DNA of 45,769 bases from an uncultured Erysipelotrichaceae bacterium (GCA_902803285.1 CADCPC010000043.1:1-45769), one strand, 5' to 3'; numbered from the stretch's first letter, positions 9,948-31,121 are shown. The notes: generated by a model not told the origin, from the letters alone. Program-made: numbers and translations.

Positions 9948-9981
9948 AAAGTATCGCTTTCTCAGCGGTACTTTTTGTTTT
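9948..9981 (+). terminator. Intrinsic terminator
   Basis: AAAGTATCGCT/AGCGGTACTTT stem plus T-run. Confidence 0.8.
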
Positions 9982-10031
9982 GCCTTATTTCTATTTGTTA
10001 AATAGAAGCAAAAGTAATAGAATTATTTTGT

Positions 10032-14533: not shown

Positions 14534-14535
14534 TT

Positions 14536-14853: not shown

Positions 14854-14855
14854 GT

Positions 14856-16189: not shown

Positions 16190-16190
16190 G

Positions 16191-16709: not shown

Positions 16710-16735
16710 AATAAAAACGCACCATATGATGCGTT
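16708..16735 (-). terminator. Terminator of the minus-strand acyl operon (possibly bidirectional)
   Basis: On the minus strand AACGCATCA/TGGTGCGTT followed by TTTATTTT. Confidence 0.65.
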
Positions 16736-17429
16736 AATTGAATTTGGCTTCGAAGTATTTACTTTTGAAGTAGTAATTATCATCGATTTGCTCGTATTCA
16801 TAAGCGAATTTTTTATTAATAGGAATCTCTTTCTTAAATAGAATAGTGATTTCTTTGAAATCTAATGAATCTCCATTAGCGTATATTGTGTCACACATAA
16901 TACTCATATAGTGTGTGTTACTTAAGTGTCCGTTGATGTCCACTAATGAATAGTTTGCGGTGTAAATCTTTTTATTATGGAGTTCCGGTACTTTAAGCTT
17001 TACTACAGGAATAACGTCTGTAGGATTCATTTCTCCATTAATGATGATGCCGTTTTCTGCTGGATCAATAAATTGACGGGTGTTCTTATCGATTAATGAC
17101 CATAAGGCATTTGCTCTAATCAAGACTTCACCTGCTTCGTTTTTAACAATAATATTACGAGGGAAGAAGTAGTGGAGAGTCATTCCAGGAGTGCATTCTA
17201 AGATGATGTTTTCATCATATTCAGGCATTCTGTTTATAAGGATGTGTTCAGAAATGATGACCCACAAGAATCCTTTATCTAGTGTTTTGTCTCTGCCCAT
17301 CCCTAGTTCTTCAGTATGAGCGATACAACACTGCTGAAAAAGGTTCATAAAAGAAGAGAAGGTCATCTTCTTTCTATAATCCACTAGTTCAGATCTAACG
17401 TTAAGTTTTCTAATATAAACTTCGTTCAT
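16734..17429 (-). CDS. Acyl-ACP thioesterase (FatA/B-like double hotdog)
   Basis: V...VD, FQ.....H...LG, W.I......I.R.P, D.NGH..N..Y. Confidence 0.88.
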   Translation of the reverse strand: MNEVYIRKLNVRSELVDYRKKMTFSSFMNLFQQCCIAHTEELGMGRDKTLDKGFLWVIISEHILINRMPEYDENIILECTPGMTLHYFFPRNIIVKNEAGEVLIRANALWSLIDKNTRQFIDPAENGIIINGEMNPTDVIPVVKLKVPELHNKKIYTANYSLVDINGHLSNTHYMSIMCDTIYANGDSLDFKEITILFKKEIPINKKFAYEYEQIDDNYYFKSKYFEAKFN

Positions 17430-17674
17430 TATTTAAGTTCTTTTTGAATTGCGTCTAAAACATCACCAAAGGTGAGCATCTTTTCCCATTTACGATGTGG
17501 GATTTTAATATTGAATTCAGCTTCGATTCTGCACATGACATAGACGAAAGTCATTGAATCAACACCAGCGTCGTTATTAATTCTTGTGTCTTCTTTGAGT
17601 TCAACATCTTCAAATCCAGGTAGACATGTTTGAACGATGATTTGGGTTTTCTTGGCGATTTCTTCTCTTGTCAT
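17429..17674 (-). CDS. Acyl carrier protein
   Basis: 81 aa; GVDSM phosphopantetheine site; IE.EF.I.I; T.GD. Confidence 0.9.
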   Translation of the reverse strand: MTREEIAKKTQIIVQTCLPGFEDVELKEDTRINNDAGVDSMTFVYVMCRIEAEFNIKIPHRKWEKMLTFGDVLDAIQKELK

Positions 17675-17677
17675 TTG

Positions 17678-19000
17678 TTAATCCTCAACTTTAATTAAAT
17701 ATTTCATAACCTTTCCTGTTCCAGTTCTTGGAAGTTTATCTTTTGCGTAGATAATTTTCTCAATCTTGTGAGAACGGGATTGGGTTTTATTGAACTCGTC
17801 TACGATGTTTTCTACATCAATAGGCTTGTATATATACAATATTACTTGTCCTTTAGCATTTTGTAAAATGCAGAAATCACATCCTGGACCTAATAGTGAT
17901 AATAATTTAGCCTCATATTCTGGGATATATAATTTGCTACCATCGCCAAAGACCAATATTTCCTTTTTACGACCAGTAATGAATAGACAACCATCTTCTA
18001 TTTTTCCTAAATCACCAGTGTGGAGCTCTCCGTCAATCAAAGTGGCTTCAGTGGACTTAGGATCGTTATAATAACCTTTCATTAAAGTGGTGTTGCTTTT
18101 AACGATGATTTCTCCATCTTCTGCGATTCTAACTTTATAATCAGGGCAGATGGACATCGCTCTTGGATTATCATGCAATGATAAGGCAATACCAGAACTA
18201 GATTCAGTTAAACCATATCCATATGATAATCTAATACCTAACGCTTTAATCGCATTGATAGTCATATCATCACATGAACCTGCACCGATAAGAATTAATG
18301 ATAGTTCGTTATTGAATAATTTATTGAACACTAAGAATTTTGCCATTTCTGGAACTAGAGTGGTGACAGTTGGTTTATATAAAGCAAAATCAGTAAAGAT
18401 TTGTCTTAAACCATTGCCTAAACAGACAGTTGCACCAAATGAGATTGGCCATAGTATAGAACACACTAACCCAAAGACATGTGATAGTGGCAGAACCGCT
18501 AATAATTTGTCTTCTTTAGTAAGCGGCAATAATGAACCACCGTTAAAAGTAGCGTTACATAGTGTTTGCTCAGTTAAAACGACAGCCTTAGATTCACTTG
18601 TTGTACCACTAGTGAAGAATAAAATATCTTTATCTTCAGTGTGATAGTTAACTTCTAAGTGAGGGGTAAGAATATCTCTTAATTCTTCATCGCCAAATAA
18701 AATATGCCCAACATGAGTGGCTTTAATCTTTTTGATGAGTGATTCTTCTCTTTCGTTAGGGTCTAAGATAATTAATTGTTTCTTACTTGCTAAAGCGAAT
18801 AAGGCAATAATGCTTTCGATATTATTAGAAATAAATAGACCAACAACATCTTCTTTTGGAAGAGGATATTTATGTACTTTTTCAAGTAATTCTCCATAGG
18901 AGATTGATGCGATTTGTCCTTCTTTTAGATAGGAAAAAATGCAATCGTTAGATTCTTGTGCACTGATGAGCTCAGAAAAGCTTTTAAAACGTTTTATCAT
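17678..19000 (-). CDS. Long-chain fatty-acid adenylating enzyme (acyl-CoA/acyl-ACP synthetase)
   Basis: FTSGTTSESK, YGYGLTE, HTGDLG, GRKKE, LPRT.TGK; ATG at 19000 preferred. Confidence 0.9.
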   Translation of the reverse strand: MIKRFKSFSELISAQESNDCIFSYLKEGQIASISYGELLEKVHKYPLPKEDVVGLFISNNIESIIALFALASKKQLIILDPNEREESLIKKIKATHVGHILFGDEELRDILTPHLEVNYHTEDKDILFFTSGTTSESKAVVLTEQTLCNATFNGGSLLPLTKEDKLLAVLPLSHVFGLVCSILWPISFGATVCLGNGLRQIFTDFALYKPTVTTLVPEMAKFLVFNKLFNNELSLILIGAGSCDDMTINAIKALGIRLSYGYGLTESSSGIALSLHDNPRAMSICPDYKVRIAEDGEIIVKSNTTLMKGYYNDPKSTEATLIDGELHTGDLGKIEDGCLFITGRKKEILVFGDGSKLYIPEYEAKLLSLLGPGCDFCILQNAKGQVILYIYKPIDVENIVDEFNKTQSRSHKIEKIIYAKDKLPRTGTGKVMKYLIKVED

Positions 19001-19107
19001 ATAAGTTATTATAGCAAAATATGCTATAGATTGATAAAAATTATTGAAGAAAAGAGTAACTCTCAATTACAATATAATTGTCGTTAAAAATATAAGAGGT
19101 AAAATTA
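19001..19107. promoter_or_regulatory. Divergent promoter region with inverted repeats
   Basis: Minus TGcTATAAT 19016-19008; plus TTGAAG(19044)...TACAAT(19068); IR TATAGCA-5-TGCTATA 19010-19028. Confidence 0.55.
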
Positions 19108-20535
19108 ATGGACAAAAAAACAAGAATAGCCATTATCGGTGGTGGTCCAGCTGGACTTTCTGCTGGTATGTATCTCGAACAAAAAGGCTACGAGAACTAT
19201 GTCATTTTTGAAAAGACAGATCACGTTGGTGGAAAATGTCACTCCCCAACATTCCATGGCAAACGTCATGAAATGGGCGCTATCATGGGTGTCCCTAGTT
19301 ACTATGCAGTTCACGATGTCGAACTCTTTGCTGGCGTAACTCACGATGGACCAAAACTACACAGAACTTACCGTTTACCAAATGGTAAAGTTGATCATCG
19401 TTTCGACAAGAGACTCTTCAACATTCCACATCTCTTAAAGCTCAAAAAGCAAATCAAAAAATTTGGTGAAATCTTAGAAACCAAATATAAAGGTTATGAT
19501 GTTTGTGGCCATAGAGGCGTTTCTGAAGGTAGATACGAAGGTTTCGCAGTCACACCTGGTAGAGAACCAGTTAGCGGTGAAAATCCAAACTTAAAAGATT
19601 TAGCAATGCCTTTCAAACAATTCGTTGAAAAGAATGGCGTTCCACTAGTTCAAGAAATTTGGGTCCAACCATTCACATCATTCGGTTACGGATATTTTGA
19701 CGAAATCCCAGCTGCTTATGTCTTAAAATACTTAGACTTCCAAACCATGATGAACTTCGTCAATGTTAACTTATGGACTTGGAAAGATGGTACACAAAGC
19801 ATCTACGAAGCTTTAAATAGAAAGCTCAAACACCCAGCATTATTAAATAGCAACATCGAAAAGATCGTTCGTGGTGATAAAGTTGAAATCACTGTCAACG
19901 GTAAGAAAGAAGTCTTTGATAAATTAATTATCACTGCTCCATTACAAGTTGGTGAAATCAATAACCCAGTCGCTAAAGGATTAGACACATATCTTGATGT
20001 CACTCCAGAAGAAAGAGAATTATTCTCTAAGATCGACTACGAACGTTATGATACATTCGCATGGAATATGGCTCCAGAAGCATATCCAGAAGCATCATTC
20101 TACGTTGTTGACAATATGACACCAGAGACCTTAGGTCATGGTATGGTCTTCTATATGAGATGGGCTGGAGAACCAGAACAACCAATGATCTCTTATAGAT
20201 TACGTAAACACAGAGATCCAAAAGAAACTGTCGAAGAATACAAAGCACGTCCAGAATTAGGATATGAAGAAACAAAGAAAACTTGTATCGAAGATATCAA
20301 GGCTCTTGGTTTAGCTCCTTTGAAGGATGAAAACGGCAGAGACAAGATTATCTATGAATTCCAAACATATTACTTCCCACACGTCTTCTCTGAAGATTAC
20401 GCAAACGGATGGTATGAAAAAGTTGAAGCTATGCAAGGTAAAAACAATACCTACTATGCTGGTGAAGTTATGTCATTCGGTGACATGGACGAAACTGTCG
20501 AATATTCTAGAGATTTAGTCGAAAGATTCTTCTAA
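19108..20535 (+). CDS. FAD-dependent polyunsaturated fatty acid (linoleate) isomerase, Cutibacterium acnes PAI-like
   Basis: Colinear with PAI as recalled: RIAIIG.GPAGL.AGMYLEQ.G, TDHVGGKCHSP, EMGAIMGVPSY, PFT.FGYG.FD..PAAYVLKYLDF.TMM.F, LWTW.DGTQ, YYFPHV.SEDY..GWYEKVE.MQG, YAGE.MSFG. Confidence 0.88.
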   Translation: MDKKTRIAIIGGGPAGLSAGMYLEQKGYENYVIFEKTDHVGGKCHSPTFHGKRHEMGAIMGVPSYYAVHDVELFAGVTHDGPKLHRTYRLPNGKVDHRFDKRLFNIPHLLKLKKQIKKFGEILETKYKGYDVCGHRGVSEGRYEGFAVTPGREPVSGENPNLKDLAMPFKQFVEKNGVPLVQEIWVQPFTSFGYGYFDEIPAAYVLKYLDFQTMMNFVNVNLWTWKDGTQSIYEALNRKLKHPALLNSNIEKIVRGDKVEITVNGKKEVFDKLIITAPLQVGEINNPVAKGLDTYLDVTPEERELFSKIDYERYDTFAWNMAPEAYPEASFYVVDNMTPETLGHGMVFYMRWAGEPEQPMISYRLRKHRDPKETVEEYKARPELGYEETKKTCIEDIKALGLAPLKDENGRDKIIYEFQTYYFPHVFSEDYANGWYEKVEAMQGKNNTYYAGEVMSFGDMDETVEYSRDLVERFF

Positions 20536-20547: not shown

Positions 20548-20583
20548 GAATAAAAAGGGGAGTTCATCTCCCCTTATTCTTTA
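20548..20583 (+). terminator. Intercistronic hairpin (partial terminator or stabiliser)
   Basis: AAGGGGAG-ttcat-CTCCCCTT with an interrupted T-tail. Confidence 0.55.
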
Positions 20584-20597
20584 TAAAGGAGAGAAAA

Positions 20598-22172
20598 ATG
20601 GCAAATAAACATTTTCAAGATTCGTATGATGTTGTTGTCATTGGTGGTGCTCTTGCGGGACTTGCCAGTGCCTTAACATTAGCAAAAAAAGGAAAAAAAG
20701 TTCTCGTCTTAGAACAACACAATTTACCTGGTGGTATCGCTACTTCTTTTGTGAGAGGAGATGTCGAAATTGAAGGTACACTTCATGAAATGATGTCTAT
20801 CGGACCAAAAGAATGCCCATTAAAGATTAGAAAATTCTTTGATGAAATGGGTGTTGATATCGAATGGTTACGTGTTCCAGATGCTTATCGTTTTGTCGAT
20901 GGTAAAACTGGAGTTAACGTCTTAGTCCATCCTGGAGATCACGGCAATTTTGAAACGCCTGCTCGTGAAATTGCAGAAGCAGTTGAACCAGGAAACGAAG
21001 AACTTTATAAAAAAGTTTTAGACTTACTCAACTTATGTGGTAGAGTTTATGACTCAGTTAACATTCTTTCTGTTACTCACATGTCCAAAGTTCAAATGTT
21101 ATTGAAACATCCAGACTTTGTTAAGACTGCTGGATATAGCGCTAAGGAAGTTGTTGATACATTTAAACTTCCTCAAAAAGTTGTTGATATCTTATCAGCC
21201 TATTGGATTTATGTCGGTGACATTTTAGAAAACTTACCATTTACTGTTTGGGCTTTCTTAATGGGGGATTACCTCGGATATGGTAGTTATGTTCCAAAGA
21301 AATTCTCACACGAAATGTCTCTTAAGATGTGTGAACGCGCAATAGAAATGGGCTGCCAAGTCGAATTTGGTACACGCGTTGATAAAATCTTAGTCAAGAA
21401 TGGACACGTTGAAGGCGTGAGACTTGCTAATGGTGAAGAAGTTAAAGCAAGATATGTTGTTTGTAGTGCTTATCCTGATAAAGCATATACAAAGATGATT
21501 GAACCTCTCAGCGAAGTTCCTGCTGGCGCACTTAAGTTCGTCAATAGTAAAACTGTCGGTGTGACTTGCTTCTCTGTCGTCTTATTGCTAGACGATGAAC
21601 CAGAGAATTTAGGCATCAAAGATTATTCAACTTTCTATGCTCCAAAAGGTATGGACTTAGAAACAATATTCAAAGAATATGCAACAGAAGGTCCTTACAA
21701 TTACATCACTTCTATTTGTACTAACCTTGCTAACCCAGGTTGTACTCCAAAAGGTACTTGTGTATATTCCATTACTGCACTTCCTAGACCAGAAGGTTGG
21801 CTTGGAGTTACAGAAGAAAATTATGAAGAACTTAAACGTAAGAACGCTGAATATTTCATCGATCAAGAATCTAAACGTTTAGGTGTTGATTTAAGAAAAC
21901 ATATTTTAGAAATTGTTATTGAAGCACCTTGTACAATTGCTCACTACACAGGTGCATATCGTGGAAGTATCTACGGTTATATGCACACAATGGATGACCA
22001 TATTGTGGCAAGACTTCAAATGAGTGAAAAAGAAAACTTCATTCAAGGCTTATCTTTCGCTGGCGCTCACCAAATCTCTGGTGATGGTATGGGACCAGCA
22101 GTCACTAATGGTCGTAAAGGCGCAAAGATCATCTTAGACATGATGGAAGAAGACGCTAAGGAGGGCAAATAA
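20598..22172 (+). CDS. CrtI/CrtISO/retinol-saturase-like FAD oxidoreductase
   Basis: DVVVIGG..AGL..A, VLEQHN.PGG.ATSF.RG, P.T...YTG..RGSIYG, GL.FAG...G.G....V..G; SD AAGGAG. Confidence 0.85.
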   Translation: MANKHFQDSYDVVVIGGALAGLASALTLAKKGKKVLVLEQHNLPGGIATSFVRGDVEIEGTLHEMMSIGPKECPLKIRKFFDEMGVDIEWLRVPDAYRFVDGKTGVNVLVHPGDHGNFETPAREIAEAVEPGNEELYKKVLDLLNLCGRVYDSVNILSVTHMSKVQMLLKHPDFVKTAGYSAKEVVDTFKLPQKVVDILSAYWIYVGDILENLPFTVWAFLMGDYLGYGSYVPKKFSHEMSLKMCERAIEMGCQVEFGTRVDKILVKNGHVEGVRLANGEEVKARYVVCSAYPDKAYTKMIEPLSEVPAGALKFVNSKTVGVTCFSVVLLLDDEPENLGIKDYSTFYAPKGMDLETIFKEYATEGPYNYITSICTNLANPGCTPKGTCVYSITALPRPEGWLGVTEENYEELKRKNAEYFIDQESKRLGVDLRKHILEIVIEAPCTIAHYTGAYRGSIYGYMHTMDDHIVARLQMSEKENFIQGLSFAGAHQISGDGMGPAVTNGRKGAKIILDMMEEDAKEGK

Positions 22173-22173
22173 G

Positions 22174-23349
22174 ATGAAAGTTAAAGGCTTTTTAAAAGAC
22201 GTTGGTGGCGCTTCTAGAGTTACCAAAAGAAGACAAGAAAACTTTGATAAAGCTCCTGCAACTTCTCAATATAACGATCCGATTACAGAAGTAGCAAGAA
22301 AACTTCATCCTGGATTCATTAAATTAACTGTAACTGCAGTTAAAGATGCTTCTCCAACAGCGAGAACATTAAGATTCGAAGCTCCACATCTTCCATATTT
22401 CAGAGCTGGTCAATTCTTAACTTTACTAGTTAAGATTGGTGATTCTCTTGTTACTAGACCATATTCCATTTCTAGCGCACCTTATGAGACTAGAGGTGAT
22501 AAGCCATTAGTGGAAATCACTGTGAGAAAATCTAAAGGTGACGGATTCATTTGTGACTACTTATATGAAAAAGTGAAAGTTGGAGATGAATTCCTTGGCG
22601 AAGTTGGTTTAGGTGAATTCCATTATGATTACATTAGAGATGCGAAAGACGTTGTTGCTATCGCTGGTGGTAGTGGCATTACTCCTTTTGCATCAATGGC
22701 AAAAGAAATTAAAAATGGTAAACTCGACATGCATCTCACAATTCTTTATGGTTCTGTCAGTGATAAAGATATCATCTTAAAAGATGAATTAGATAAATGT
22801 GAATGCGAAAAGGTTAGAGTAGTTCACGTTTTAAGCGGTGATAACCCTTCTTGGAAAGGCGAAAAAGGCTTTATCAACGCGGATATCATTAAGAAATATT
22901 CTAGCGAAGACACCACATATTTCATTTGTGGACCACAAGTGATGTATGACTTTGTTAAAGGAGAATTAGCAAAGCTAAATATTCCTAAACGTAGAGTGAG
23001 ATTTGAAGTCTTTGGTCAAGTTAGAGACATCACTAAATTTGCAGGATTCCCAGTGGAATTAAAAGACAAAGTCTTTAACTTAACAGTTTGTAAAGGCATC
23101 TCTGAACAAGTTATTCCTGCAAAATGTAATGAGAGCATTGCTGTCGCACTTGAAAGAGCGGGAATTAAAGTTCATACAGCATGTCGTAGTGGCGCTTGTG
23201 GATTCTGCAGAATAAAAGTTCTTGAAGGTTCATATTATGTTTGCCCAGTTGGCGATGGTCGTAGAGCAGCAGATAAAGACTTCAATTACGTCCATTCTTG
23301 CTCAACTTATCCAACAAGTGATATTAAGATTAAACTTAATATTGACTAA
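22174..23349 (+). CDS. FNR-family NAD(P)H:flavin reductase with C-terminal [2Fe-2S] domain
   Basis: RPYSISS, AGGSGITP, CGP..M, E.FG, CRSGACGFC...C. Confidence 0.92.
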   Translation: MKVKGFLKDVGGASRVTKRRQENFDKAPATSQYNDPITEVARKLHPGFIKLTVTAVKDASPTARTLRFEAPHLPYFRAGQFLTLLVKIGDSLVTRPYSISSAPYETRGDKPLVEITVRKSKGDGFICDYLYEKVKVGDEFLGEVGLGEFHYDYIRDAKDVVAIAGGSGITPFASMAKEIKNGKLDMHLTILYGSVSDKDIILKDELDKCECEKVRVVHVLSGDNPSWKGEKGFINADIIKKYSSEDTTYFICGPQVMYDFVKGELAKLNIPKRRVRFEVFGQVRDITKFAGFPVELKDKVFNLTVCKGISEQVIPAKCNESIAVALERAGIKVHTACRSGACGFCRIKVLEGSYYVCPVGDGRRAADKDFNYVHSCSTYPTSDIKIKLNID

Positions 23350-23358
23350 AGATAATAT

Positions 23359-23393
23359 AAAAGACATCTAAGAGAAATCTTGGATGTTTTTTT
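23359..23393 (+). terminator. Intrinsic terminator
   Basis: GACATCTAAGA-gaaa-TCTTGGATGTT plus T-run. Confidence 0.85.
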
Positions 23394-23419
23394 GTGCACA
23401 ATAAATTAAAATAAGTAAT

Positions 23420-24322
23420 ATGAAAAAGAAGAGCATTATAATTGCCGGTTGCGTTGCTTTAGGCGCGATTATTTTTTCTTGCCTAGGATTTTCTGGCATC
23501 CTCAAACAGAAAAGCAAGAATACGAATTACGCAGATTGGATGTCTCATCTTGCGGATTCAACTTCTTTAAGAGACATCAATATGCCTGGTAGTCATGACA
23601 CAATGGCCTTATATTCTATCGCTGATTTAGCGGGACAGTGCCAGTCATTATCTTTAGGAGATCAACTTAATCTAGGAGTTAGATTCTTAGACATTAGATT
23701 AAAAGAAGAAAATAACTCTTTAAAAGCGGTACATGGTTTTATTGATCAACACGCTTATTTTAGTGATATTACTTCTACTGTTGAATCTTTCTTAGAAAAC
23801 CATCCAACCGAATTTATTATTATGTCGATTAAAGAAGAAGCTGATAGTAGCAAATCTACAATTAGCTTTGAAGAAGCGGTTAAGAATTACCTTAAGAGTG
23901 ATGTTTATTTAAAAGAGACAAGTTTACCAACCTCTTTAGGAACAGTTAGAGGCAAAGTCATGCTTTTATCTAGATATGCGAATTCTTCAATCGGAATCCC
24001 TGCTTATAATGGATGGGCTGATTCTACTTCCTTTACATTACCAAATGATATCTATGTTCAAGATACCTATAAGATTAAATCTAAAGAAGAAAAGCAAGAC
24101 GAAATCATCAAGTGTTTTAATGAGAGTGGTCACGCTTTGAAAATTAATTTCTTAAGTGCGTACCGCACTAACTATTTGCCACCTAGTTATGCACCTAGTG
24201 CAGCCTTAGATATCGACCCTTGGATTAACGCGAATATAGATAAATATAATGACCGCGGTATTGTTTTATATGACTTTGTTACTGAAACAAATATGACCGC
24301 TTTCTTTAAGGGGGCAATCTAA
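23420..24322 (+). CDS. Exported phosphatidylinositol-specific phospholipase C-like (PI-PLC X domain)
   Basis: Signal/TM; WMS.L, PGSHDT, QL..GVRFLDIRL, HG, FL..HP.E..I, RGKV. Confidence 0.88.
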   Translation: MKKKSIIIAGCVALGAIIFSCLGFSGILKQKSKNTNYADWMSHLADSTSLRDINMPGSHDTMALYSIADLAGQCQSLSLGDQLNLGVRFLDIRLKEENNSLKAVHGFIDQHAYFSDITSTVESFLENHPTEFIIMSIKEEADSSKSTISFEEAVKNYLKSDVYLKETSLPTSLGTVRGKVMLLSRYANSSIGIPAYNGWADSTSFTLPNDIYVQDTYKIKSKEEKQDEIIKCFNESGHALKINFLSAYRTNYLPPSYAPSAALDIDPWINANIDKYNDRGIVLYDFVTETNMTAFFKGAI

Positions 24323-24720
24323 TGAAAACTTTTAGAACTATCCTCCTATATATCGGAGCTTCATTTGTCGCTCTAATTGCTTTTTTATTAGCATTTTTAG
24401 AAATTAGAAGCATTTTTGCCGGTGATTTTACACTTATGAATAATAGAGCTGCTAGTTTCTTCGCTTATCTATTTAGAGGTTTATTCTATTTAGGTTTGTT
24501 AGCCGAGGCTATCATTTTAATGATATTCAAAGGCAAACACATCAAGATTGATTTATCATTATTCATTGTTTCTGTTGGCTTATTTGGTGGTGGAATTCTA
24601 GCATTTATTTATTACCACTTCATTGTTGCTTTAGCAGTAACAGTAGTAGCATTGATACCAGTAATTATCACAGCGATTGAACACTTTGCGATTAAAGAAA
24701 AAGACACTGTTGAGGAATAA
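24322..24720 (+). CDS. Hypothetical 4-TM membrane protein
   Basis: Four hydrophobic segments; TAATG coupling to the PLC gene. Confidence 0.7.
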   Translation: MKTFRTILLYIGASFVALIAFLLAFLEIRSIFAGDFTLMNNRAASFFAYLFRGLFYLGLLAEAIILMIFKGKHIKIDLSLFIVSVGLFGGGILAFIYYHFIVALAVTVVALIPVIITAIEHFAIKEKDTVEE

Positions 24721-24724
24721 TAAT

Positions 24725-26416
24725 ATGCCATTAGGAAGCACAATTAACTCTTTGATGATGATTGTTGGCAATATCAACACTGATAAGCCAACTAAGCAGG
24801 TAATTAAAAATCGTAAAAAAGATAAGCCTGCTACTTTTCCTCGTGGGGAAGAAGTTAACTTCTTACCTAGAAGTAGGCCTAGTAAGCATGGTTATTCAGA
24901 GGAATATATCAATTCATTTTTCCATGAATTAGAATCGGATTTATCTATTAGGGCTAACCGTTGTTTAATTGTTAAGGATAACTATGTTATTGGAGAAAAA
25001 TATGAATACCCTTATGTTAAAGATGCTTGGGATCATATATTTTCCGCAACCAAAACAGTTACAACTTTAGCGTTAGGTTTATTATATGATGAAGGCAAAA
25101 TTGATTTAGACGCCCCCGTATATAAAATACTTAAAATTAAACCAGGGAATGCTGCTAATAAAAAGATTACGTTAAGACATTTATTAACTATGACTACTGG
25201 TGTCTTGTTCAATGAAGTTGAAAGTGCAGCAACCACTAAATGGGTTAAAGGATTCTTTGGTTCAGGAGCTAAATTCAAAGTTGGTAAAAAGTTTGATTAT
25301 AATTCACTAAATACATATATCATCTCTGTTGTTGTCGAAAAGATAGCAGGTATTAGCTTTGAAGAATTCATTAAAGAAAGAATATTCAAACCTTTAGATA
25401 TGAATTCTTGCCATTTAGATAAATCTCCAGAAGGATATTTTAAAGGCGGATGGGGATTATATATTCTTCCAGAAGATATGGCAAAATTAGGCATCCTTGT
25501 CAAAGACAAAGGTGTTTATAACAATAAACGTATTATCTCTGAAAAATGGATAGAAATGATGAGCAGTAAACAAATCGAGGCCACTAAATACGGAAGAAGA
25601 TTTGATTATGGCTTTCAAATGTGGGTTTGTGATGAACATCATTTCTGCATGTTCAATGGCCTATATAATCAAGACATCATTATCTTTAAGGAAACAGGAG
25701 TGGTGCTAGTGGTGGCCTCTTCTAACGGAGAAGCGTTCCATGGCTCTAACTATTTCGATATCGCGATTAAATACTTTGCAAGCAAAGAAAAAACTACTGA
25801 ACTTTGCGAGACAAAAGGTTCGAGAGATATTGCAAATTTGTCCCATCTAAATTACTACTATGACAAGATTGCAAATCAAGAATACTTACCTTTGGGTAAG
25901 ATTGCTAATTCTTGTGGTGTTCTACCTCTGTTAATTCAAAATGAAGTAGGCACTTATGCACAAGGAATTAAATCATTATATTTTAAGAAAGAAAATGATC
26001 AGTACGCTCTTGTGATAAACGAAGGAAAAGAGAGCTATGAACTACCATTTAATTTCGAAAATGGAGTTCGTAATATTTATAACTTCTACGGCAATTTATT
26101 TGACTGTGTTTGTGATGGCAGATTTATGCTAACCGCTAAGGGTTTACCTCTATTTGTTTTCAGAATGTTTTTCTTAGAATATTCTTCTTCCAGATACATC
26201 ACTGTGAAATTTGATAAACGATTTGATTTGTTATCATTAGAGTTAAGTGAATATCCAGGATTTGACTTTGTCGCTTCACTTATGGATGAACAAGATGAAC
26301 CGGTGAAGAACCTTCTTAATAGTGCAATGAAGGCAATTAATCCAGCGATATTAAAGGGAAAGATTAAAGATATCTTTGCTCCTAACTTCATGATTAAAAA
26401 GAAGGAAGAGAAATAA
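24725..26416 (+). CDS. Beta-lactamase-fold serine hydrolase (esterase-like) with C-terminal extension
   Basis: FSATK (SxxK), TLRHLLTMTTG, F.YNS, RIF.PL.M, GGWGL, YGFQ.W; ATG 24725 after GAGGA. Confidence 0.85.
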   Translation: MPLGSTINSLMMIVGNINTDKPTKQVIKNRKKDKPATFPRGEEVNFLPRSRPSKHGYSEEYINSFFHELESDLSIRANRCLIVKDNYVIGEKYEYPYVKDAWDHIFSATKTVTTLALGLLYDEGKIDLDAPVYKILKIKPGNAANKKITLRHLLTMTTGVLFNEVESAATTKWVKGFFGSGAKFKVGKKFDYNSLNTYIISVVVEKIAGISFEEFIKERIFKPLDMNSCHLDKSPEGYFKGGWGLYILPEDMAKLGILVKDKGVYNNKRIISEKWIEMMSSKQIEATKYGRRFDYGFQMWVCDEHHFCMFNGLYNQDIIIFKETGVVLVVASSNGEAFHGSNYFDIAIKYFASKEKTTELCETKGSRDIANLSHLNYYYDKIANQEYLPLGKIANSCGVLPLLIQNEVGTYAQGIKSLYFKKENDQYALVINEGKESYELPFNFENGVRNIYNFYGNLFDCVCDGRFMLTAKGLPLFVFRMFFLEYSSSRYITVKFDKRFDLLSLELSEYPGFDFVASLMDEQDEPVKNLLNSAMKAINPAILKGKIKDIFAPNFMIKKKEEK

Positions 26417-26493: not shown

Positions 26494-27165
26494 ATGAGCG
26501 AAGTAAAAATAGTAGAAATTAAAGAAGATATCTCTGAGAGATATGCTCCTTACGCTGAAGAGATTAGGAAAATTCTTAAAGAGAAGAAAACCTATCTTTT
26601 AAATGTTATGTCTTCTCCAGGAAGTGGAAAGACTACTTTAATTATTGAATTAATTAACAAGCTAAAAAAAGATTTTCATATTGGAGTTCTAGAAACTGAT
26701 ATTGACGGTAAAGAAGATGCTCAAAGGATACATGATGGTACTGGTGTGAGAACTATCCAAATCCATACTGGTGGAGCATGTCATTTAACAAGCAAAATGT
26801 CTCTTGAGGCATTATCTTTACTAGATGATGAACACTTTGATCTAATCGTTTTGGAAAACATCGGCAACCTAGTGTGCCCGGCAGAATTTGATGTTGGGGC
26901 AATTAAGAACTTAATCTTGTTATCTCTACCAGAAGGAGATGACAAACCACTCAAATATCCATTGATGTTTGAAGTTGCTAATATCATCGCAATTACCAAG
27001 CTAGATACTGCTCCTGTATTTGATTTTTCTAAAGAAAAAGCTATTCAAAATATTAAAAAGAGAAATGAACATGTAGATATATTCTTTACTAGTAGCAAAA
27101 CTGGTGAAGGTGTTGATGAGTTAGTTAAATATCTAACTAATGAAGTTAAGGAATTTATTAAATAA
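26494..27165 (+). CDS. hypB: HypB-family metallochaperone GTPase, copy 1
   Basis: MSSPGSGKT, TGGACHL, ENIGNLVCPAEFD.G, EGDDKPLKYP, TKLD, S.KTG.G. Confidence 0.93.
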   Translation: MSEVKIVEIKEDISERYAPYAEEIRKILKEKKTYLLNVMSSPGSGKTTLIIELINKLKKDFHIGVLETDIDGKEDAQRIHDGTGVRTIQIHTGGACHLTSKMSLEALSLLDDEHFDLIVLENIGNLVCPAEFDVGAIKNLILLSLPEGDDKPLKYPLMFEVANIIAITKLDTAPVFDFSKEKAIQNIKKRNEHVDIFFTSSKTGEGVDELVKYLTNEVKEFIK

Positions 27166-27836
27166 TGAGTGAAGTTAAGACTATTTTACTTAATCGTTCA
27201 GTAGCGGATTCCATTGAAGAAGAAGCAGAAGAACTCAGGCAAGAATTAAAGGCTAAAAAGACCTTCCTTTTAAATGTCATGTCTTCTCCTGGAAGTGGAA
27301 AAACTACAACCTTAATCAAGATTATTAACGCTCTTAAAGATAAATTCAAAATTGCAATTATGGAAGCTGATATCGATAGTGATGTTGACGCTATTAAAGT
27401 TTCTAAAGAGACAGGCATCAAATCTATTCAACTCCACACTGGTGGCATGTGCCACTTAGATGGAGCGATGACTAGACAAGGCCTAGATGAATTAGATGGA
27501 CATTATGACTTTGTCATATTAGAGAATGTTGGTAACCTCGTTTGTCCAGCGGAATTTGATACCGGAGCTTCACTTAACATGGTTATTCTTTCTGTTCCAG
27601 AAGGAAGTGATAAACCACTCAAATATCCATTGATGTTTGAAAAAAGTAACCTCGTTCTTATAAATAAGATTGACACAATTGATTATTTCGATTTCAATTA
27701 TAATGTAGTCAGCGACTTTATTTATAAAAGAAATAAAAATGCGCAGATATTCAAAATATCGGCAAAAGTAGGCACGGGCATCAAAGAAGTATGTGACTAT
27801 TTAACTAAGGAAATTGAAAACTGGGGAGGAAAATAA
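27165..27836 (+). CDS. hypB: HypB-family metallochaperone GTPase, copy 2
   Basis: MSSPGSGKT, TGGMCHL, ENVGNLVCPAEFD.G, EGSDKPLKYP, NKID, SAK.G.G. Confidence 0.93.
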   Translation: MSEVKTILLNRSVADSIEEEAEELRQELKAKKTFLLNVMSSPGSGKTTTLIKIINALKDKFKIAIMEADIDSDVDAIKVSKETGIKSIQLHTGGMCHLDGAMTRQGLDELDGHYDFVILENVGNLVCPAEFDTGASLNMVILSVPEGSDKPLKYPLMFEKSNLVLINKIDTIDYFDFNYNVVSDFIYKRNKNAQIFKISAKVGTGIKEVCDYLTKEIENWGGK

Positions 27837-27839
27837 TAC

Positions 27840-30767
27840 ATGCCAGAACAATATAAGAAAAATCCTGCTACTATCTCCAAATATGATGGGATAGAACTCA
27901 AGACAGAAGAAGAAAAAAGACTTTTCGAAAAGTACGCTGCTCTTGGCAAGAAAATTACTGACAACGTCAGAACAAAACTAGGCGGAGTCAAAACAACATC
28001 ACCTGAATGGTGGGGTCTAAGAGAAATGCTTACAGAAGAGGAAGTTGATTTTGCTCTTCGCATGAAGCTCAGAAAATGGTACACCATGGAACAACTTGTC
28101 GAAATGCAAAAGAAACAATTCGACGCTCAACAAGTTAAAGACATTACATGGTCATTATCCGTTAAAGGTTTAATCGAATACGACTGGGGAGATCATTATA
28201 ATGATGACGGTCCTATTCCAAATGCACCTACTGATAAGAGATATAGAATTTCATTCTTTGTTCCTGGTAGTGCTGAATTATTCAACTCTTCATTAGATAG
28301 AATTGAATCAAGACCTGCAGTTGCTAACTTTTTTGAAAGAATGACATTCTTACCACTTGAACATGTTACTCACATGGTAAGACCTGGCGGTAACGGTATT
28401 GGTATGCACGTTATCCCTGTTGAAAAAGCAATTGAAACCAACCCAGAAACAATTAAAATCGAAAAGATTTCATATTGGATGAAGAAATATAAGGGACACG
28501 TATCTGCTGGTATCTGTTCGTGTCGTGCTTCTAGAGCAATGCTCGGTGAAGGATGTGAAGATGATATCAATGACTGGTGTATCCAATTAGGCGATATGGC
28601 TGACTACACTGTTGAAACAGGTAGAGCTCACTATATCACCGAAGAAGAAGCATTTGAAACCTTCAGGAAAGCAGAACAAAACGGATTTGTTCACCAAGTT
28701 ACCAACATCGATGGCGATGATCATATCTTCGATATCTGTAACTGTGATGTTAAGATTTGTAACGCTTTAAGAACTGCTCTTCTATATAACACTCCTAATA
28801 TGCAAAGAAGTAGTTTTACTTCTGTTGTTGATAAACAAAAGTGTGTTGCTTGTGGACGTTGTGTCGAAGCTTGTCCAGCAGGCGCACTTAAATTAGGTCA
28901 AAAATTATGTAAGGCTGATGGCACTGAAGTTCAATATCCAAAACAACCATTACCAGACAAGATCAAATGGGGCAAATACGCTTGGGATGAAAACTATCGT
29001 GATACAGCAAGAGTTAATACACATGATTCAGGTACTGCTCCATGTAAAACAGCATGTCCTGCCCATGTCCCAGTTCAAGGCTATCTAAAGATGGCTAACC
29101 AAGGACGTTATAGAGAAGCTTTAGCTCTCATTAAGAGAGAAAACCCATTCCCGGCAGTCTGTGGTCGTATTTGTAATAAGAGATGTGAAGACGCTTGTAC
29201 TAGAGGTACAATCGATTCTCCAGTTTCTATCGATGCAGTTAAGAAGTTCTTAGCTGAATACGAAATCAAGAGTGGCAAATATGTTGTCCCAGAAAAGATC
29301 GTTCCAAAAGTCAATGGTGAATTCGACGATAAGATCGCTATCATTGGTGCTGGTCCAGCTGGCTTATCCGCTGCTTACTATTTAGGCGTTATGGGTTACC
29401 ATCCAACAGTGTTTGAAAAGAATGAAAAACCTGGTGGAATGTTAAGATATGGTATTCCTTCATATAAACTTGAAAAAGATGTTATCGATGCCGAAATTGA
29501 AGTCATCAAAGAACTTGGTGTTGAAATCAAGTGTGGCGTTGAAGTTGGCAAAGATATCACAATTGATGAACTCAAAAAACAAGGCTACAAAGCATTCTAT
29601 GTTGCTATTGGATGCCAAGGTGGTAGAAGACCTGGAGTTGCTAACGACACAGCTGAAGGTACAGAAATCGCTGTTGATTTCTTAAGAAGAGCTAGCGCAG
29701 ACAAAAAACCTACATTATCAGGTGATGTCGTAGTCGTTGGTGGTGGTAACGTCGCTATCGACTGTGCACGCGTTTCTTCTAGACTAGGCGCTGGTAAAGT
29801 CAGCATGTTCTGTCTCGAAAGTAAAGATACAATGCCTGCAAGCAAAGAAGAGATTTTCGAAGCTGAAGATGAAGGCATCGTAATCAACCCATCTTATGGT
29901 CCAAAAGAAGTAAAAGTTGACTCAAAAGGCCATGTTTCTTCAATTATTTTCAAGAGATGCTTATCCACTTTAGATGAAAACGGTAAGTTCGCTCCTAAGT
30001 ATGATGAAGAAGATACAATTGAAGTTCCAGCTAACCACATCATCTTCGCAATTGGTCAAACAATTGTCTGGGGTGACTTATTAAAAGGAACAAAAGTTAC
30101 TTATTGGAGAAATGGTTATCCAGTCGCTGACAAGTTAACCTATCAAACCGCTGATGACGATATCTTCGTTGGTGGTGATGTCAATACAGGCCCACGCTTT
30201 GTTATCGACGCAATCGCACAAGGTCATGAAGTCGCAACTTCCTTAGCAAGACATTGCCGTTGGAATGCTTCTATGACAATTGGTAGAGATAGAAGACACT
30301 TCGTCTCCTTAAATAAAGAAGACATCTTAATTCCAAGCTACGATGAAGCTGGAAGACAAGAAGCTGGTTTAGATCCAAATATCGATCACCGCAAGTCATT
30401 CAGAGATGCTCACTTAACATTAACTGAAGAGCAAGTTCACATTGAAACAAACAGATGCTTAAGCTGTGGTGCAACAATTGTTGATCCAAATAAATGTATC
30501 GGTTGTGGTATTTGTACAACTAGATGTGAATTTGACGCTATCAAGTTAGTGAGAGACCATCCAAAATGTTCTGATATGCGTAAAGCAGAAAACAAAGTCA
30601 CTGGTTTATTAGGCTATGCTGCAAAACGTGCTATCAAGATTGCATTACATTCCGGCAGTAAAGAAGCTCGTGAAATGCGTGCAAGACGTAAAGCGTGGAA
30701 TAAGGCTCATAAGAATGATCCAAATACCCATACTGGTTACGCAGTACCTCTTCCAGAAAGAAAATAA
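27840..30767 (+). CDS. Multi-domain Fe-S flavoprotein (Cys/His-rich N-domain + ferredoxin + GltD/NfnB-like FAD/NAD(P) module + ferredoxin)
   Basis: CSCR..GC..C..HQ..ICNC..C; CVACGRCVEACP; APCKTACP..CGRIC...CEDAC.R; IIGAGPAG; GGGNVAID; RCLSC..CIGCGIC...C. Confidence 0.85.
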   Translation: MPEQYKKNPATISKYDGIELKTEEEKRLFEKYAALGKKITDNVRTKLGGVKTTSPEWWGLREMLTEEEVDFALRMKLRKWYTMEQLVEMQKKQFDAQQVKDITWSLSVKGLIEYDWGDHYNDDGPIPNAPTDKRYRISFFVPGSAELFNSSLDRIESRPAVANFFERMTFLPLEHVTHMVRPGGNGIGMHVIPVEKAIETNPETIKIEKISYWMKKYKGHVSAGICSCRASRAMLGEGCEDDINDWCIQLGDMADYTVETGRAHYITEEEAFETFRKAEQNGFVHQVTNIDGDDHIFDICNCDVKICNALRTALLYNTPNMQRSSFTSVVDKQKCVACGRCVEACPAGALKLGQKLCKADGTEVQYPKQPLPDKIKWGKYAWDENYRDTARVNTHDSGTAPCKTACPAHVPVQGYLKMANQGRYREALALIKRENPFPAVCGRICNKRCEDACTRGTIDSPVSIDAVKKFLAEYEIKSGKYVVPEKIVPKVNGEFDDKIAIIGAGPAGLSAAYYLGVMGYHPTVFEKNEKPGGMLRYGIPSYKLEKDVIDAEIEVIKELGVEIKCGVEVGKDITIDELKKQGYKAFYVAIGCQGGRRPGVANDTAEGTEIAVDFLRRASADKKPTLSGDVVVVGGGNVAIDCARVSSRLGAGKVSMFCLESKDTMPASKEEIFEAEDEGIVINPSYGPKEVKVDSKGHVSSIIFKRCLSTLDENGKFAPKYDEEDTIEVPANHIIFAIGQTIVWGDLLKGTKVTYWRNGYPVADKLTYQTADDDIFVGGDVNTGPRFVIDAIAQGHEVATSLARHCRWNASMTIGRDRRHFVSLNKEDILIPSYDEAGRQEAGLDPNIDHRKSFRDAHLTLTEEQVHIETNRCLSCGATIVDPNKCIGCGICTTRCEFDAIKLVRDHPKCSDMRKAENKVTGLLGYAAKRAIKIALHSGSKEAREMRARRKAWNKAHKNDPNTHTGYAVPLPERK

Positions 30768-30770
30768 TTC

Positions 30771-31121
30771 ATGCATGAATTAGGCATTGTGTTTCATATC
30801 ATCAAAGATATTGACAAAATTGCCGAAGAGAATCACGTTAAACAAGTTAAAAGTGTAACCCTTGAACTCGGTGAAGTTTCAGGAGTCATTCCTGAATACC
30901 TAGTCGATGTATGGAATTGGGCATGTGAAAACAAGTCCAAGTACATGAAGGGCTGCAAACTTGATCTTAAGATCATTAAAGCAATCACTTTCTGTGATAG
31001 CTGTAAGAAAACATATTCCACTTTAAAAGGCAAGATTTGCCCTTATTGTGGCAGTAAAGAAACGTGGCTATTAGAAGGCAACGAAACGAAAATAAAAAGC
31101 ATAGAAGTAGTGGATTCCTAG
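30771..31121 (+). CDS. hypA: HypA nickel metallochaperone
   Basis: N-terminal MHE Ni-binding motif; GE.SGV; CDSC...CPYCGS zinc finger. Confidence 0.95.
   Translation: MHELGIVFHIIKDIDKIAEENHVKQVKSVTLELGEVSGVIPEYLVDVWNWACENKSKYMKGCKLDLKIIKAITFCDSCKKTYSTLKGKICPYCGSKETWLLEGNETKIKSIEVVDS

Follow-up and report, generated by a model that had tools for sequence, protein, structure and literature searches.

A coupled CrtI-type flavoenzyme and FNR/[2Fe-2S] reductase in an uncultured Erysipelotrichaceae bacterium: a candidate two-component C=C reductase of the ruminant gut

Analysis of a contig from an uncultured Erysipelotrichaceae bacterium (CADCPC010000043.1; the window, that is, the whole stretch of 45,769 nucleotides analysed) revealed two adjoining genes for a CrtI-type FAD flavoenzyme (P0001) and an FNR-type reductase with a plant-type [2Fe-2S] domain (P0002). 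Their arrangement here and in related genomes supports a single functional unit. We give an even chance to the reading that this unit is a two-component NAD(P)H-dependent C=C reductase, acting on a long-chain unsaturated fatty acid in rumen biohydrogenation.

Results

Coupling of the two genes

The P0001 gene (20598..22172, + strand) and the P0002 gene (22174..23349, + strand) are only 1 nt apart, as a preliminary description of this DNA had stated: the TAA stop of the former is followed by G and then by the ATG of the latter, and a GGAGG lies just 5′ of this start. The common terminator claimed in that description was also found, as an intrinsic-terminator-like hairpin with a T-run directly 3′ of the P0002 gene (about 23355..23396, + strand). 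It was identified by folding (−16.6 kcal/mol, z −4.9, with 0 of 200 shuffles as stable), and the consensus terminator scan did not pick it up. The same scan did locate a terminator-like hairpin between the pair and the upstream gene, a homolog of PAI, which isomerises polyunsaturated fatty acids (20555..20575, + strand; 8 pairs, 5 of them G-C, then a T-rich tail). With hairpins on both sides, the pair may be transcribed separately from the PAI-like gene. In RNA libraries of four studies, contigs span nearly the whole PAI-like gene, part of the CrtI-like gene (X15, 20554-21808), and part of the FNR gene (X17), and none of those listed bridges the 22172/22174 junction; DNA carry-over is possible for these contigs, they cannot be used to rank expression, and they speak neither for nor against co-transcription.

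Co-occurrence analysis, which the preliminary description had proposed as a check on the pairing, bore it out. Among 80 related loci, 78 have a gene for a P0002 homolog directly 3′ of that for the P0001 homolog, and the two exceptions (L008 and L019) stop at a contig edge. Among loci with at least 1.2 kb downstream, a strict distance rule counted 72 out of 73 as adjacent, and in the 73rd (L075) the genes overlap by about 10 nt and are hence adjacent too, so that all 73 informative loci agree. The intergenic gap falls within −4 to +1 nt in 58 of the 78 loci: in 47 it is −4 nt, and 11 more have −1 to +1 nt.

Both modules also occur in single polypeptides. Amine-oxidase/DAO-type domains were present as well in 115 of the 120 longer relatives of P0002, and the fusions run in both orders: FNR-Fer2 before the CrtI-like part in P0123 (full-length identity 43% to P0002 and 41% to P0001), and the CrtI-like part before FNR-Fer2 in P0144, P0192, and P0171. 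The AF2 model of the fusion P0144 (pLDDT 84.0 and pTM 0.87 over 883 residues) is consistent with a fixed arrangement of the two modules. Because of the adjacency in all informative loci, the gaps of −4 to +1 nt, and the fusions in both orders, these sequence comparisons support the view that P0001 and P0002 make up one functional unit. Fused homologs were found in Syntrophales, Dehalococcoidia, and Actinobacteria of other habitats, so that the wider family is not bound to rumen fat.

The CrtI-like flavoenzyme

P0001 (524 aa, ATG start, predicted mass about 58 kDa) is the proposed C=C saturase of the pair and was assigned to the amine-oxidase fold by Pfam and by structure comparison. PF01593 (Amino_oxidase) covers residues 19-512 with 53.8 bits (cut-off 19.8), the N-terminal FAD Rossmann models match, with NAD_binding_8 at 14-65, and a GxGxxG stretch is present in the translation. 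P0001 scored 77.4 bits against the CrtI family model TIGR02734 (cut-off 238.1) and 72.6 bits against the NCBIfam carotenoid isomerase model TIGR02730 (cut-off 587), and it fell far under the cut-offs of the CrtID, CRTISO, CrtD, and CrtO equivalog models as well. With every curated cut-off missed by far, no reaction can be assigned from homology.

The closest PDB entry by sequence was 4rep (E 2e-10). A Foldseek search with the AF2 model of P0001 (pLDDT 82.4, pTM 0.83) also returned 4rep first (E 3e-27, TM 0.76/0.82) and 4dgk second, at 13-18% identity, and the predicted structure has the three-domain fold of the CrtI type. The ESM Atlas matches were only to 'phytoene desaturase family' clusters, and a tblastn search with P0001 against plasmids gave no match. 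We also considered whether P0001 and the PAI-like protein are paralogs and rejected this, as they have only a common Rossmann motif (27% over 95 residues, E 0.001).

The FNR-type reductase

P0002 (391 aa, ATG start) consists of an N-terminal extension, an FAD barrel, an NAD(P)H domain, and a plant-type [2Fe-2S] domain, with the Pfam matches FAD_binding_6 at 51-151, NAD_binding_1 at 163-262, and Fer2 at 311-381. The FAD motif R95-P-Y-S98, the NAD(P)H motifs G165-G-S-G-I-T-P171 and C252-G-P254, and the [2Fe-2S] ligands Cys 337/342/345/376 (Cx4Cx2Cx(n)C) are each invariant in 15 of 15 homologs. Membership was reached in none of the named equivalogs (PaaE, Hcr, BenC, and others); the top family scores were 125 bits for TIGR02160 (PaaE; cut-off 421) and 123 bits for NF007964 (cut-off 383). 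The PDB matches were 1krh and 2pia.

Since FAD_binding_6 begins at residue 51, about 47-50 residues precede the FNR barrel by the Pfam boundaries, close to the extension of about 45 aa described earlier. This extension (47 aa) is highly conserved across the 15 homologs, all of which share M1, K2, F6, D9, G12, A13, R15, T17, R20, D35, P36, I37, H45, and P46. It is used as the linker in the fusions that begin with the CrtI-like part and is retained at the free N-terminus in those that begin with the FNR part. A role as a mere inter-domain linker was rejected on this last ground. Being conserved and kept in both fusion orders, the extension seems an intrinsic part of reductases of this subfamily, more than a peptide that serves for docking in trans alone.

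Upstream genes for fatty acid isomerisation and acyl transfer

The PAI-like gene directly upstream of the P0001 gene (19108..20535, + strand) is predicted to encode a full-length PAI homolog, with t10,c12-CLA from linoleic acid as its putative product. Its protein matched PDB 2b9w with E 2.3e-118 and 399 bits (query 2-475, chain 4-423, in two stretches), and this entry is PAI, the linoleate (10E,12Z) isomerase of Propionibacterium acnes, according to PMC13003489. A PAI-like gene occupies this position in 59 of 68 loci; in the other nine no such gene lies upstream and the pair is found among unrelated genes.

Divergent from the flavoenzyme genes are those of a 462-aa acyl-AMP-forming ligase resembling fatty-acid CoA/ACP ligases (17678..19066, − strand; PF00501), a small acyl-carrier-protein-like protein of 81 aa (17429..17674, − strand; PF00550 at 25.1 bits, cut-off 20.8), and a 231-aa acyl-ACP thioesterase (16734..17429, − strand; PF01643, 80 bits). 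The ligase matched fatty-acid–CoA ligase models and the Aas-type acyl-[ACP] ligase part, each under its cut-off, and the ACP-like protein matched NF009104 (E 3.7e-14), likewise under the cut-off. In the 50 loci whose upstream DNA extends for 4.5 kb or more, the ligase was present in 39, the ACP in 40, and the thioesterase in 39.

Of 301 genomes surveyed in the order, 29 have a P0001 ortholog; a PAI-like gene (called at E ≤ 1e-50) was detected in 19 of these 29 and in 55 of the 272 others, kinship being ignored in this count; it was not found at that threshold in the other 10 of the 29. Seven of eight other genomes of the same genus carry a PAI-like gene but no P0001 ortholog. No PAI-like gene was found in a Pseudobutyrivibrio MAG with the pair (L060), and in four further genomes (those of L010, L011, L012, and L018) it is located away from the pair. 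In three of these four it adjoins an IsrA-like frame of about 940 aa, so the IsrA-like enzyme could be the diene reductase.

An IsrA-like module downstream

A module at 26494..31121 on the + strand encodes two HypB GTPases (26494-27165 and 27165-27836; TIGR00073 at 219 and 205 bits, cut-off 121), an Fe-S/FAD/NAD(P) oxidoreductase, 975 aa long and of the type of the putative isoprene reductase IsrA (27840-30767), and HypA, whose gene adjoins the last (30771-31121). The 975-aa protein has Fer4, Fer4_20, and Pyr_redox_2 matches in Pfam and CSC and CNC motifs in its N-terminal domain. PMC10134865 describes IsrA 'clade 9' as proteins of about 900 aa that have a Cys-rich N-terminal domain with two CxC motifs, 4Fe-4S sites, a DPD-II domain, and an FAD/NAD(P) domain, with HypA and HypB as neighbours, and the predicted product of gene 27840-30767 shows these family features as described for IsrA (VUZ27132.1). 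The same source proposes that isoprene, an unfunctionalised conjugated diene, is reduced by IsrA and that IsrA homologs act likewise as hydrogenating enzymes on other conjugated C=C bonds, the function of IsrA itself having been deduced from proteomics only (PMC10134865). The IsrA-like flavoprotein with HypA and HypB is thus a second candidate diene reductase. In 24 of 53 loci a homolog of it stands directly 3′ of the FNR gene; counted anywhere in the locus, homologs occur in 36 of 80 and are absent from 44; in the window, the gene is 4.5 kb from the pair, behind unrelated genes.

Genome content and distribution

The window had been described as free of carotenoid genes, and the 43 ORFs scanned in it indeed gave no Pfam match for a phytoene/squalene synthase or a crtE-type polyprenyl synthase. 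PF00494 (phytoene/squalene synthase) had 0 matches in the whole 1.04-Mb genome, which is 91% complete. These results support the view that the pair is no part of carotenoid synthesis. FabF was undetected in this genome of about 1 Mb. An Rnf operon is located near the locus of the pair.

A ruminant label was carried by 49 of 80 locus titles, and in 20 sequencing runs (11 studies) that contain DNA of the window every named host was a bovine, goat, or sheep gut. The pair is present in ruminant MAGs of Erysipelotrichaceae, Oscillospiraceae, Lachnospiraceae, and Sphaerochaetaceae; the only isolate among the locus titles was Erysipelotrichaceae bacterium NK3D112 (L011). The L060 protein, from the Pseudobutyrivibrio MAG, has 750 homologs at E ≤ 1e-100; the best 120 of these 750 are either unnamed or come from MAGs, with no named cultured biohydrogenating species among them.

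Discussion

Proposed reaction

The CrtI superfamily comprises desaturases, FADred-dependent isomerases, and saturases, as given in PMC3382138. For the pair, we infer as follows which way the electrons run, what reaction is catalysed, and on which substrate. The feature that points to a reductive direction for P0001 is its NAD(P)H/[2Fe-2S] partner and nothing else, and a chain NAD(P)H → FAD → [2Fe-2S] → flavoenzyme would suit a net reductive role. A hydride from NAD(P)H would pass to the FAD of P0002, whose [2Fe-2S] cluster would then relay single electrons to the FAD of P0001, which itself has no pyridine-nucleotide site. Once reduced, the FAD of P0001 could saturate one of the double bonds in a conjugated diene through hydride transfer and protonation, the reverse of the CrtI-type desaturation of a monoene to a conjugated diene. 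The divergent ligase, ACP, and thioesterase might load and release the acyl chain.

The preliminary description had proposed a saturase fed by an external electron chain and acting on conjugated fatty acids. Its coupled unit stands and its net reductive role is compatible with our data, the saturase reaction being kept as a candidate. The upstream PAI homolog, the genes of the acyl-ACP module, and the occurrence in ruminant guts suggest a fatty acid, and among fatty acids a conjugated diene, as the substrate; this part of the proposal goes as far as that context and no further.

Several other readings deserve weight. The pair and the IsrA-like enzyme might serve one pathway at different steps, the IsrA-like enzyme reducing the PAI-made diene and the pair reducing a conjugated triene derived from linolenic acid, a different CLA isomer acquired from the community, or, with stearate as the product, the monoene left over. 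This is unlikely in our judgement, if by no means far-fetched: IsrA-like genes directly follow or accompany the pair in many loci, a PAI-like gene stands beside the frame of about 940 aa, away from the pair, in three genomes, a wider role on conjugated C=C bonds has been proposed for IsrA homologs (PMC10134865), and tandem CrtI-like paralogs 2.7 kb apart (G155, G080, G134, G179, and G195) suggest several substrates. It fits less well with the 59 loci in which the PAI-like gene directly precedes the pair, the 44 without an IsrA-like gene, and the unrelated genes that separate the two in the window, and the IsrA function on which it draws is, as noted, itself inferred from proteomics. Rumen biohydrogenation also yields many positional and geometric isomers, and P0001 could be a CRTISO-like FADred-dependent enzyme of cis-trans or positional isomerisation without net redox change, with P0002 as its reductive activator. 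The nearly equal scores of P0001 against the carotenoid isomerase and CrtI models agree with such a role. So does PMC3382138, in which CRTISO requires reduced FAD for its non-redox isomerisation and CRTI itself isomerises prolycopene when supplied with FADred. A stoichiometric, translationally coupled, and often fused reductase, however, exceeds the need of a catalytic activation, and a dedicated PAI-like isomerase that uses oxidised FAD and no partner is already next door. Neither point is decisive, and we rate an isomerase as rather unlikely.

A lipid of anoxic habitats other than a fatty acid would be an improbable substrate, for example an isoprenoid from plants (phytol, phytenic acid, a carotenoid, or squalene-like chains) or an unsaturated hydrocarbon. 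The nearest solved structures of P0001 are those of carotenoid desaturases, the fused homologs of Syntrophales, Dehalococcoidia, and Actinobacteria fall on the same side, and so do the 9 of 68 loci with unrelated neighbours. But in this clade the pair has fatty-acid enzymes for neighbours, namely the PAI-like protein, the ligase, the ACP, and the acyl-ACP thioesterase, and no conserved isoprenoid-handling gene was found beside the pair in the window or the loci. Most characterised CrtI-family members, as well as UfaD, are desaturases, so that P0001 might instead oxidise an acyl chain from monoene to conjugated diene in the manner of UfaD, with P0002 passing the electrons to NAD(P)+. This is highly improbable, as FNR-type [2Fe-2S] reductases carry electrons from NAD(P)H toward a terminal component, and as the hosts, being gut anaerobes, have neither O2 nor an evident quinone pathway. 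The reduction of an alkene at the expense of NAD(P)H is strongly exergonic, unlike desaturation with NAD+ as acceptor, and the oxidation of an alkane to an alkene with NAD(P)+ is strongly uphill.

Significance

Rumen biohydrogenation sets the polyunsaturated and trans fat that reaches milk and meat, and its organisms and genes are largely uncharted. Milk-fat depression is due to its trans-10 route. According to PMC7339423, trans-10 intermediates were formed by one of 28 rumen species in culture, Cutibacterium acnes, which was judged unlikely to be the main trans-10 agent in vivo. We found neither a gene assigned to the CLA reductase step nor a description of a CrtI-type enzyme with an FNR/[2Fe-2S] partner in the literature searched, subscription-only papers aside. 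To go beyond a reductase of unsaturated fatty acids, a tentative and on balance doubtful extension is that the pair is the missing rumen CLA reductase and forms, with the PAI-like, acyl-ACP, and nickel-chaperone-linked IsrA-like genes, a horizontally spread set for trans-10 biohydrogenation.

The pair is a concrete, expressible gene set with a full range of likely pathway partners, and it bears on how CrtI-superfamily saturases and FADred-dependent isomerases are supplied with electrons. The fusions widespread in other anaerobes suggest that anaerobic lipid-hydrogenating enzymes make up a broad family, as yet unstudied. If the CLA-reductase extension above is true, P0001 would be the first saturase of the CrtI superfamily whose physiological electron donor is defined, and unsaturated fatty acids may serve as an NADH sink tied to energy conservation in a genome without FabF and with Rnf nearby.

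Comparison with known systems

P0001 has the same fold and FAD-binding topology as the carotenoid desaturases CrtI, CrtN, and CrtD (4dgk and 4rep), whose chemistry, like that proposed here, takes place at C=C bonds near existing double bonds of long hydrophobic chains. It differs from them in its 13-18% identity, in the lack of a carotenoid pathway in its genome, and in the proposed reductive direction. It also has an obligate NAD(P)H/[2Fe-2S] reductase partner, separate or fused, whereas the electrons of CRTI go to O2 or quinones (PMC3382138). UfaD of Rhodobacter sphaeroides furan fatty-acid synthesis is a phytoene-desaturase-like FAD enzyme of fatty acyl chains, in which, according to PMC7380195, it converts a 12t monoene and a 10t,12t conjugated diene into each other. 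These positions on the C18 chain are those of t10,c12-CLA, and by this description UfaD is a precedent for P0001. Unlike the reaction proposed for P0001, that of UfaD is presented there as oxidative, with O2 proposed, and the enzyme acts on phospholipid-bound methyl-branched chains and has no reductase partner (PMC7380195).

The functional model for P0001 is given by RetSat and CRTISO, CrtI-type flavoproteins that need reduced FAD, RetSat being likened by function only. RetSat saturates a double bond of a conjugated system. The substrates of both are isoprenoids, unlike the proposed fatty-acid substrate of P0001, and to our knowledge neither has a dedicated reductase partner.

The three modules and motifs of P0002 are those of PaaE, Hcr, and the phthalate and benzoate dioxygenase reductases (2pia and 1krh), and its domain order is that of PaaE and PRK10684 (NADH oxidoreductase). 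Reductases of this class feed electrons from NAD(P)H through Fe-S to a separate terminal enzyme. Their partners are Rieske, di-iron, haem, or hybrid-cluster proteins, whereas that of P0002 is a flavoprotein, and P0002 has the conserved 47-residue N-terminal extension in addition.

The cis-9,trans-11-octadecadienoate reductase of Butyrivibrio fibrisolvens was reportedly purified by Hughes, Hunter and Tove in 1982 as an iron-containing enzyme of about 60 kDa, a mass to be set beside the roughly 58 kDa predicted for P0001; in the literature searched, we found no gene assigned to it. Like the Butyrivibrio enzyme, the CLA-HY/DH/DC/ER system of Lactobacillus plantarum has the same overall function as that proposed for our pair, the loss of a double bond from intermediates derived from linoleic acid in gut anaerobes, but its reductase, CLA-ER, belongs to another family and, unlike the proposed reaction of the pair, acts on an enone formed after hydration and oxidation, as described in PMC13365329.

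The two genes and their products

Our analysis located the gene of P0001, a CrtI-type FAD flavoenzyme of 524 aa, at 20598-22172 and that of P0002, an FNR-type [2Fe-2S] reductase of 391 aa, at 22174-23349, both on the plus strand. A single base lies between the TAA of P0001 and the ATG of P0002, so the ORF positions and 1-nt spacing in the preliminary description were correct. The terminator that it proposed for the pair was also recovered, as a hairpin with a T-run 3′ of P0002 (−16.6 kcal/mol, z = −4.9, with 0 of 200 shuffles equal). Another terminator-like hairpin was found just upstream of P0001, at 20555-20575. Carotenoid genes had been described as absent from the window, and our profile searches agreed with this: neither the scanned window ORFs nor the host genome (1.04 Mb, 91% complete) yielded a phytoene/squalene synthase.

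The flavin amine-oxidase profile of Pfam spans the entire length of P0001, and N-terminal FAD Rossmann models also match. None of the best NCBIfam models came near its cut-off: crtI_fam scored 77 bits against 238, and CrtID, carotenoid isomerase and CrtD were likewise far too low. Of the solved structures, the closest by sequence was 4rep (E 2e-10), and 4dgk matched weakly. When the AF2 model of P0001 (pLDDT 82.4, pTM 0.83) was searched with Foldseek, the top two hits were again 4rep (TM 0.76/0.82, 18% identity) and the CrtI 4dgk, while monoamine and nicotine oxidases ranked below them. P0001 belongs to the CrtI superfamily, but only distantly.

P0002 has predicted FAD_binding_6 (51-151), NAD_binding_1 (163-262) and Fer2 (311-381) domains in Pfam, and is assigned to the FNR-type reductases with a C-terminal plant-type ferredoxin domain. 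Its nearest families are PaaE, the Hcr-type NADH oxidoreductase and dioxygenase reductases, with every score under the cut-off. In 15 P0002 homologs, no variation was seen at the four cluster cysteines or in the RPYS, GGxGxxP and CGP motifs. Neither P0001 nor P0002 belongs to a curated equivalog in NCBIfam.

Adjacency and fusion of the flavoenzyme and the reductase

With one genome per species scanned, 592 relatives of P0001 were confirmed, and the best 80 loci among them were used for further analysis. In 78 of these best 80 loci, a P0002 homolog was found directly downstream on the same strand, which supports the tight coupling of the two genes proposed earlier; the two loci without an adjacent homolog end at a contig edge. 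Under a strict distance rule, the two genes were adjacent in 72 of the 73 loci with at least 1.2 kb of downstream DNA, and the 73rd (L075) failed only through an overlap of about 10 nt between the two matches. A 4-nt overlap of the ORFs is seen in 47 of the 78 loci, and 11 more have a gap of −1 to +1 nt. The bigger "overlaps" in the remaining loci are an artefact of choosing the most upstream start codon.

Among the 120 longer relatives of P0002 returned, 115 join amine-oxidase/DAO-type domains with FNR, and usually Fer2, in proteins of 870-950 aa. Both domain orders are known. The fusion protein P0123 (917 aa) has FNR-Fer2 followed by a CrtI-like part and aligns with the whole of P0002 (43% identity) and the whole of P0001 (41%), while in P0144, P0192 and P0171 the CrtI-like part precedes FNR-Fer2. 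The AF2 model of the P0144 fusion (883 residues, pTM 0.87) fits a fixed mutual arrangement of the modules. The invariant adjacency and the two independent fusion architectures argue strongly that this flavoenzyme is served by the reductase, and we regard the coupling of P0001 and P0002 as highly probable.

The N-terminal extension of P0002, previously put at about 45 aa, comprises 47 residues before the FAD barrel, and 14 of its positions are invariant in 15 homologs. In the FNR-first fusions it is still at the free N-terminus, and in the CrtI-first fusions its residues 13-47 are kept as a partly helical linker. Since it is retained in both fusion orders, the extension is a conserved and integral part of this subfamily of reductases, and it might, as proposed earlier, also dock on the partner in trans. 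Two other relatives of P0002, P0238 and P0241, are fused to an SCP2 sterol/lipid-carrier domain, not to a CrtI-like domain, and represent another lipid-linked FNR/[2Fe-2S] architecture.

Neighbouring genes

Directly upstream of P0001, at 19108-20535 (+), is a PAI-like gene, whose product is a full-length homolog of the P. acnes linoleate isomerase (PDB 2b9w; E 2.3e-118). This gene was directly upstream of the pair in 59 of the 68 loci with enough upstream DNA. Genes for an acyl-AMP ligase, an 81-aa ACP-like protein and an acyl-ACP thioesterase are transcribed divergently in the window; across 50 related loci, the ligase was found in 39, the ACP in 40 and the thioesterase in 39.

Immediately upstream of this lipid cluster, 10032-16709 holds a complete-looking Rnf operon (RnfC, RnfD, a 184-aa ORF with no Pfam match, E/A-type subunits and a short RnfB-like Fe-S protein) and then ApbE, NusG_II and Hpre_diP_synt_I genes. 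Given where it lies, this operon may connect NADH turnover with the reductase. Right after the pair, at 23420-26416, are genes for a PI-PLC-X-domain protein, a 132-aa ORF of no family and a 579-aa beta-lactamase-fold protein, whose top NCBIfam match was 3-succinylated cholic acid synthase (170 bits, cut-off 800). The products of these genes might act on lipids, as lipases or acyl-transferases that release or modify them. In the other related loci, neither the Rnf genes beside the pair nor the genes of 23420-26416 are conserved. The window also contains, at 6048-8870, a 940-aa ORF that no Pfam model matches at E ≤ 1e-8 and, at 3272-3982, a gene for a membrane protein of the YhhN family, which is related to lysoplasmalogenases.

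Further downstream of the pair, at 26494-31121, we found genes for two tandem HypB GTPases, a 975-aa Fe-S/FAD/NAD(P) oxidoreductase (27840-30767, +) and HypA. Two CxC motifs lie in the N-terminal domain of the 975-aa protein, which, together with the HypA/HypB set, agrees with the published description and operon of IsrA. IsrA, from Acetobacterium wieringae, is described as a putative reductase of isoprene, a conjugated diene, and its homologs usually adjoin hypA and hypB (PMC10134865). Homologs of the IsrA-like protein were present in 36 of the 80 loci and lay directly after the FNR gene in 24 of 53. Because they often occupy this position in other rumen loci, the IsrA-like/HypAB module is a possible second biohydrogenation reductase.

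Distribution and host

Ruminant labels occur in 49 locus titles among the best 80 of 592 (25 RGIG, from goat, sheep, cattle, deer or buffalo gut sites, 22 RUG or Tb.RUG, and 2 ruminal_MAG), and the remaining 31 name no habitat. The loci belong to Erysipelotrichaceae, Oscillospiraceae, Lachnospiraceae, Sphaerochaetaceae and one Pseudobutyrivibrio MAG. Near-identical DNA was present in 20 sequencing runs from 11 studies, including 6 RNA libraries, and every run with a named host was labelled as bovine, goat or sheep gut.

P0001 matched at E ≤ 1e-50 in 68 of the 301 genomes of the host's order, 29 with orthologs (46-100% identity) and 39 with members of a 30-37% subfamily. No match was found in the 8 other genomes of the same genus, 7 of which have a PAI-like gene in the 52-57% identity range, as in a second subfamily of these genes. 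Of the 29 ortholog carriers, 19 have a PAI-like gene, against 55 of the 272 other genomes of the order, a comparison in which relatives are not independent. The isolate Erysipelotrichaceae bacterium NK3D112 (L011) has the pair, with its PAI-like gene elsewhere.

At 6367-15444 of the Pseudobutyrivibrio locus (L060), CrtI-like, FNR and IsrA-like genes lie between two DDE transposase genes that resemble each other, as in a composite transposon, and no PAI-like gene was found in this MAG genome. Horizontal transfer within the rumen community is indicated by the patchy spread of the pair and by the 60% identity between phyla. Second CrtI-like paralogs (43-47% identity) were found about 2.7 kb from the ortholog in G155:C33, G080:C7, G134:C1, G179:C43 and G195:C54, the spacing expected of tandem CrtI-FNR units, which may reflect several substrate specificities. 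The host genome is small (1.04 Mb, 91% complete) and gave no match to FabF (TIGR03150), so the host may depend on external fatty acids.

Proposed reaction and alternatives

The most economical reading is that the pair is a two-component reductase. NAD(P)H would reduce the FAD of P0002, from which electrons would pass through the [2Fe-2S] cluster to the P0001 FAD; once reduced, this second flavin would saturate a conjugated fatty-acid double bond. The reduction of alkenes by NAD(P)H is thermodynamically favoured and the reverse is disfavoured. A precedent for this chemistry, in reverse, is UfaD, a phytoene-desaturase-like enzyme described as converting a 12t monoene acyl chain to a 10t,12t conjugated diene (PMC7380195). 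The case for a fatty-acyl C=C reductase is, in our view, evenly balanced, and t10,c12-CLA, the predicted product of the neighbouring PAI-like isomerase, is tentatively put forward as the most likely substrate. Three observations weaken the fatty-acid reading: the PAI-like gene is missing in a third of the ortholog-carrying genomes of the order, it is not upstream in 9 of 68 loci, and fused homologs occur in non-rumen anaerobes.

P0001 might instead be a FADred-dependent isomerase, a type that is also reported among CrtI relatives (PMC3382138). The diene-reducing step might likewise belong to another enzyme. In three genomes (G001:C11, G002:C9 and G003:C44), PAI-like genes of the second subfamily (52-57% identity) adjoin IsrA-like frames of about 940 aa, not the pair, so that either the IsrA-like enzyme or the pair could be the conjugated-diene reductase.

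Comparison with known systems

Our search of openly accessible literature found no paper on CrtI-type enzymes partnered by an FNR/[2Fe-2S] protein and none assigning a gene to rumen CLA reduction. In reviews, CLA reductase is still only an activity, and the organisms producing trans-10 intermediates are called unclear (PMC7339423). The pair is a real, conserved, reductase-coupled CrtI-like enzyme, and its two genes make a long-standing question of rumen lipid metabolism directly testable. In its proposed mode of working, the pair may be likened to a saturase of the RetSat type that receives electrons from a PaaE/Hcr/PDR-type reductase.
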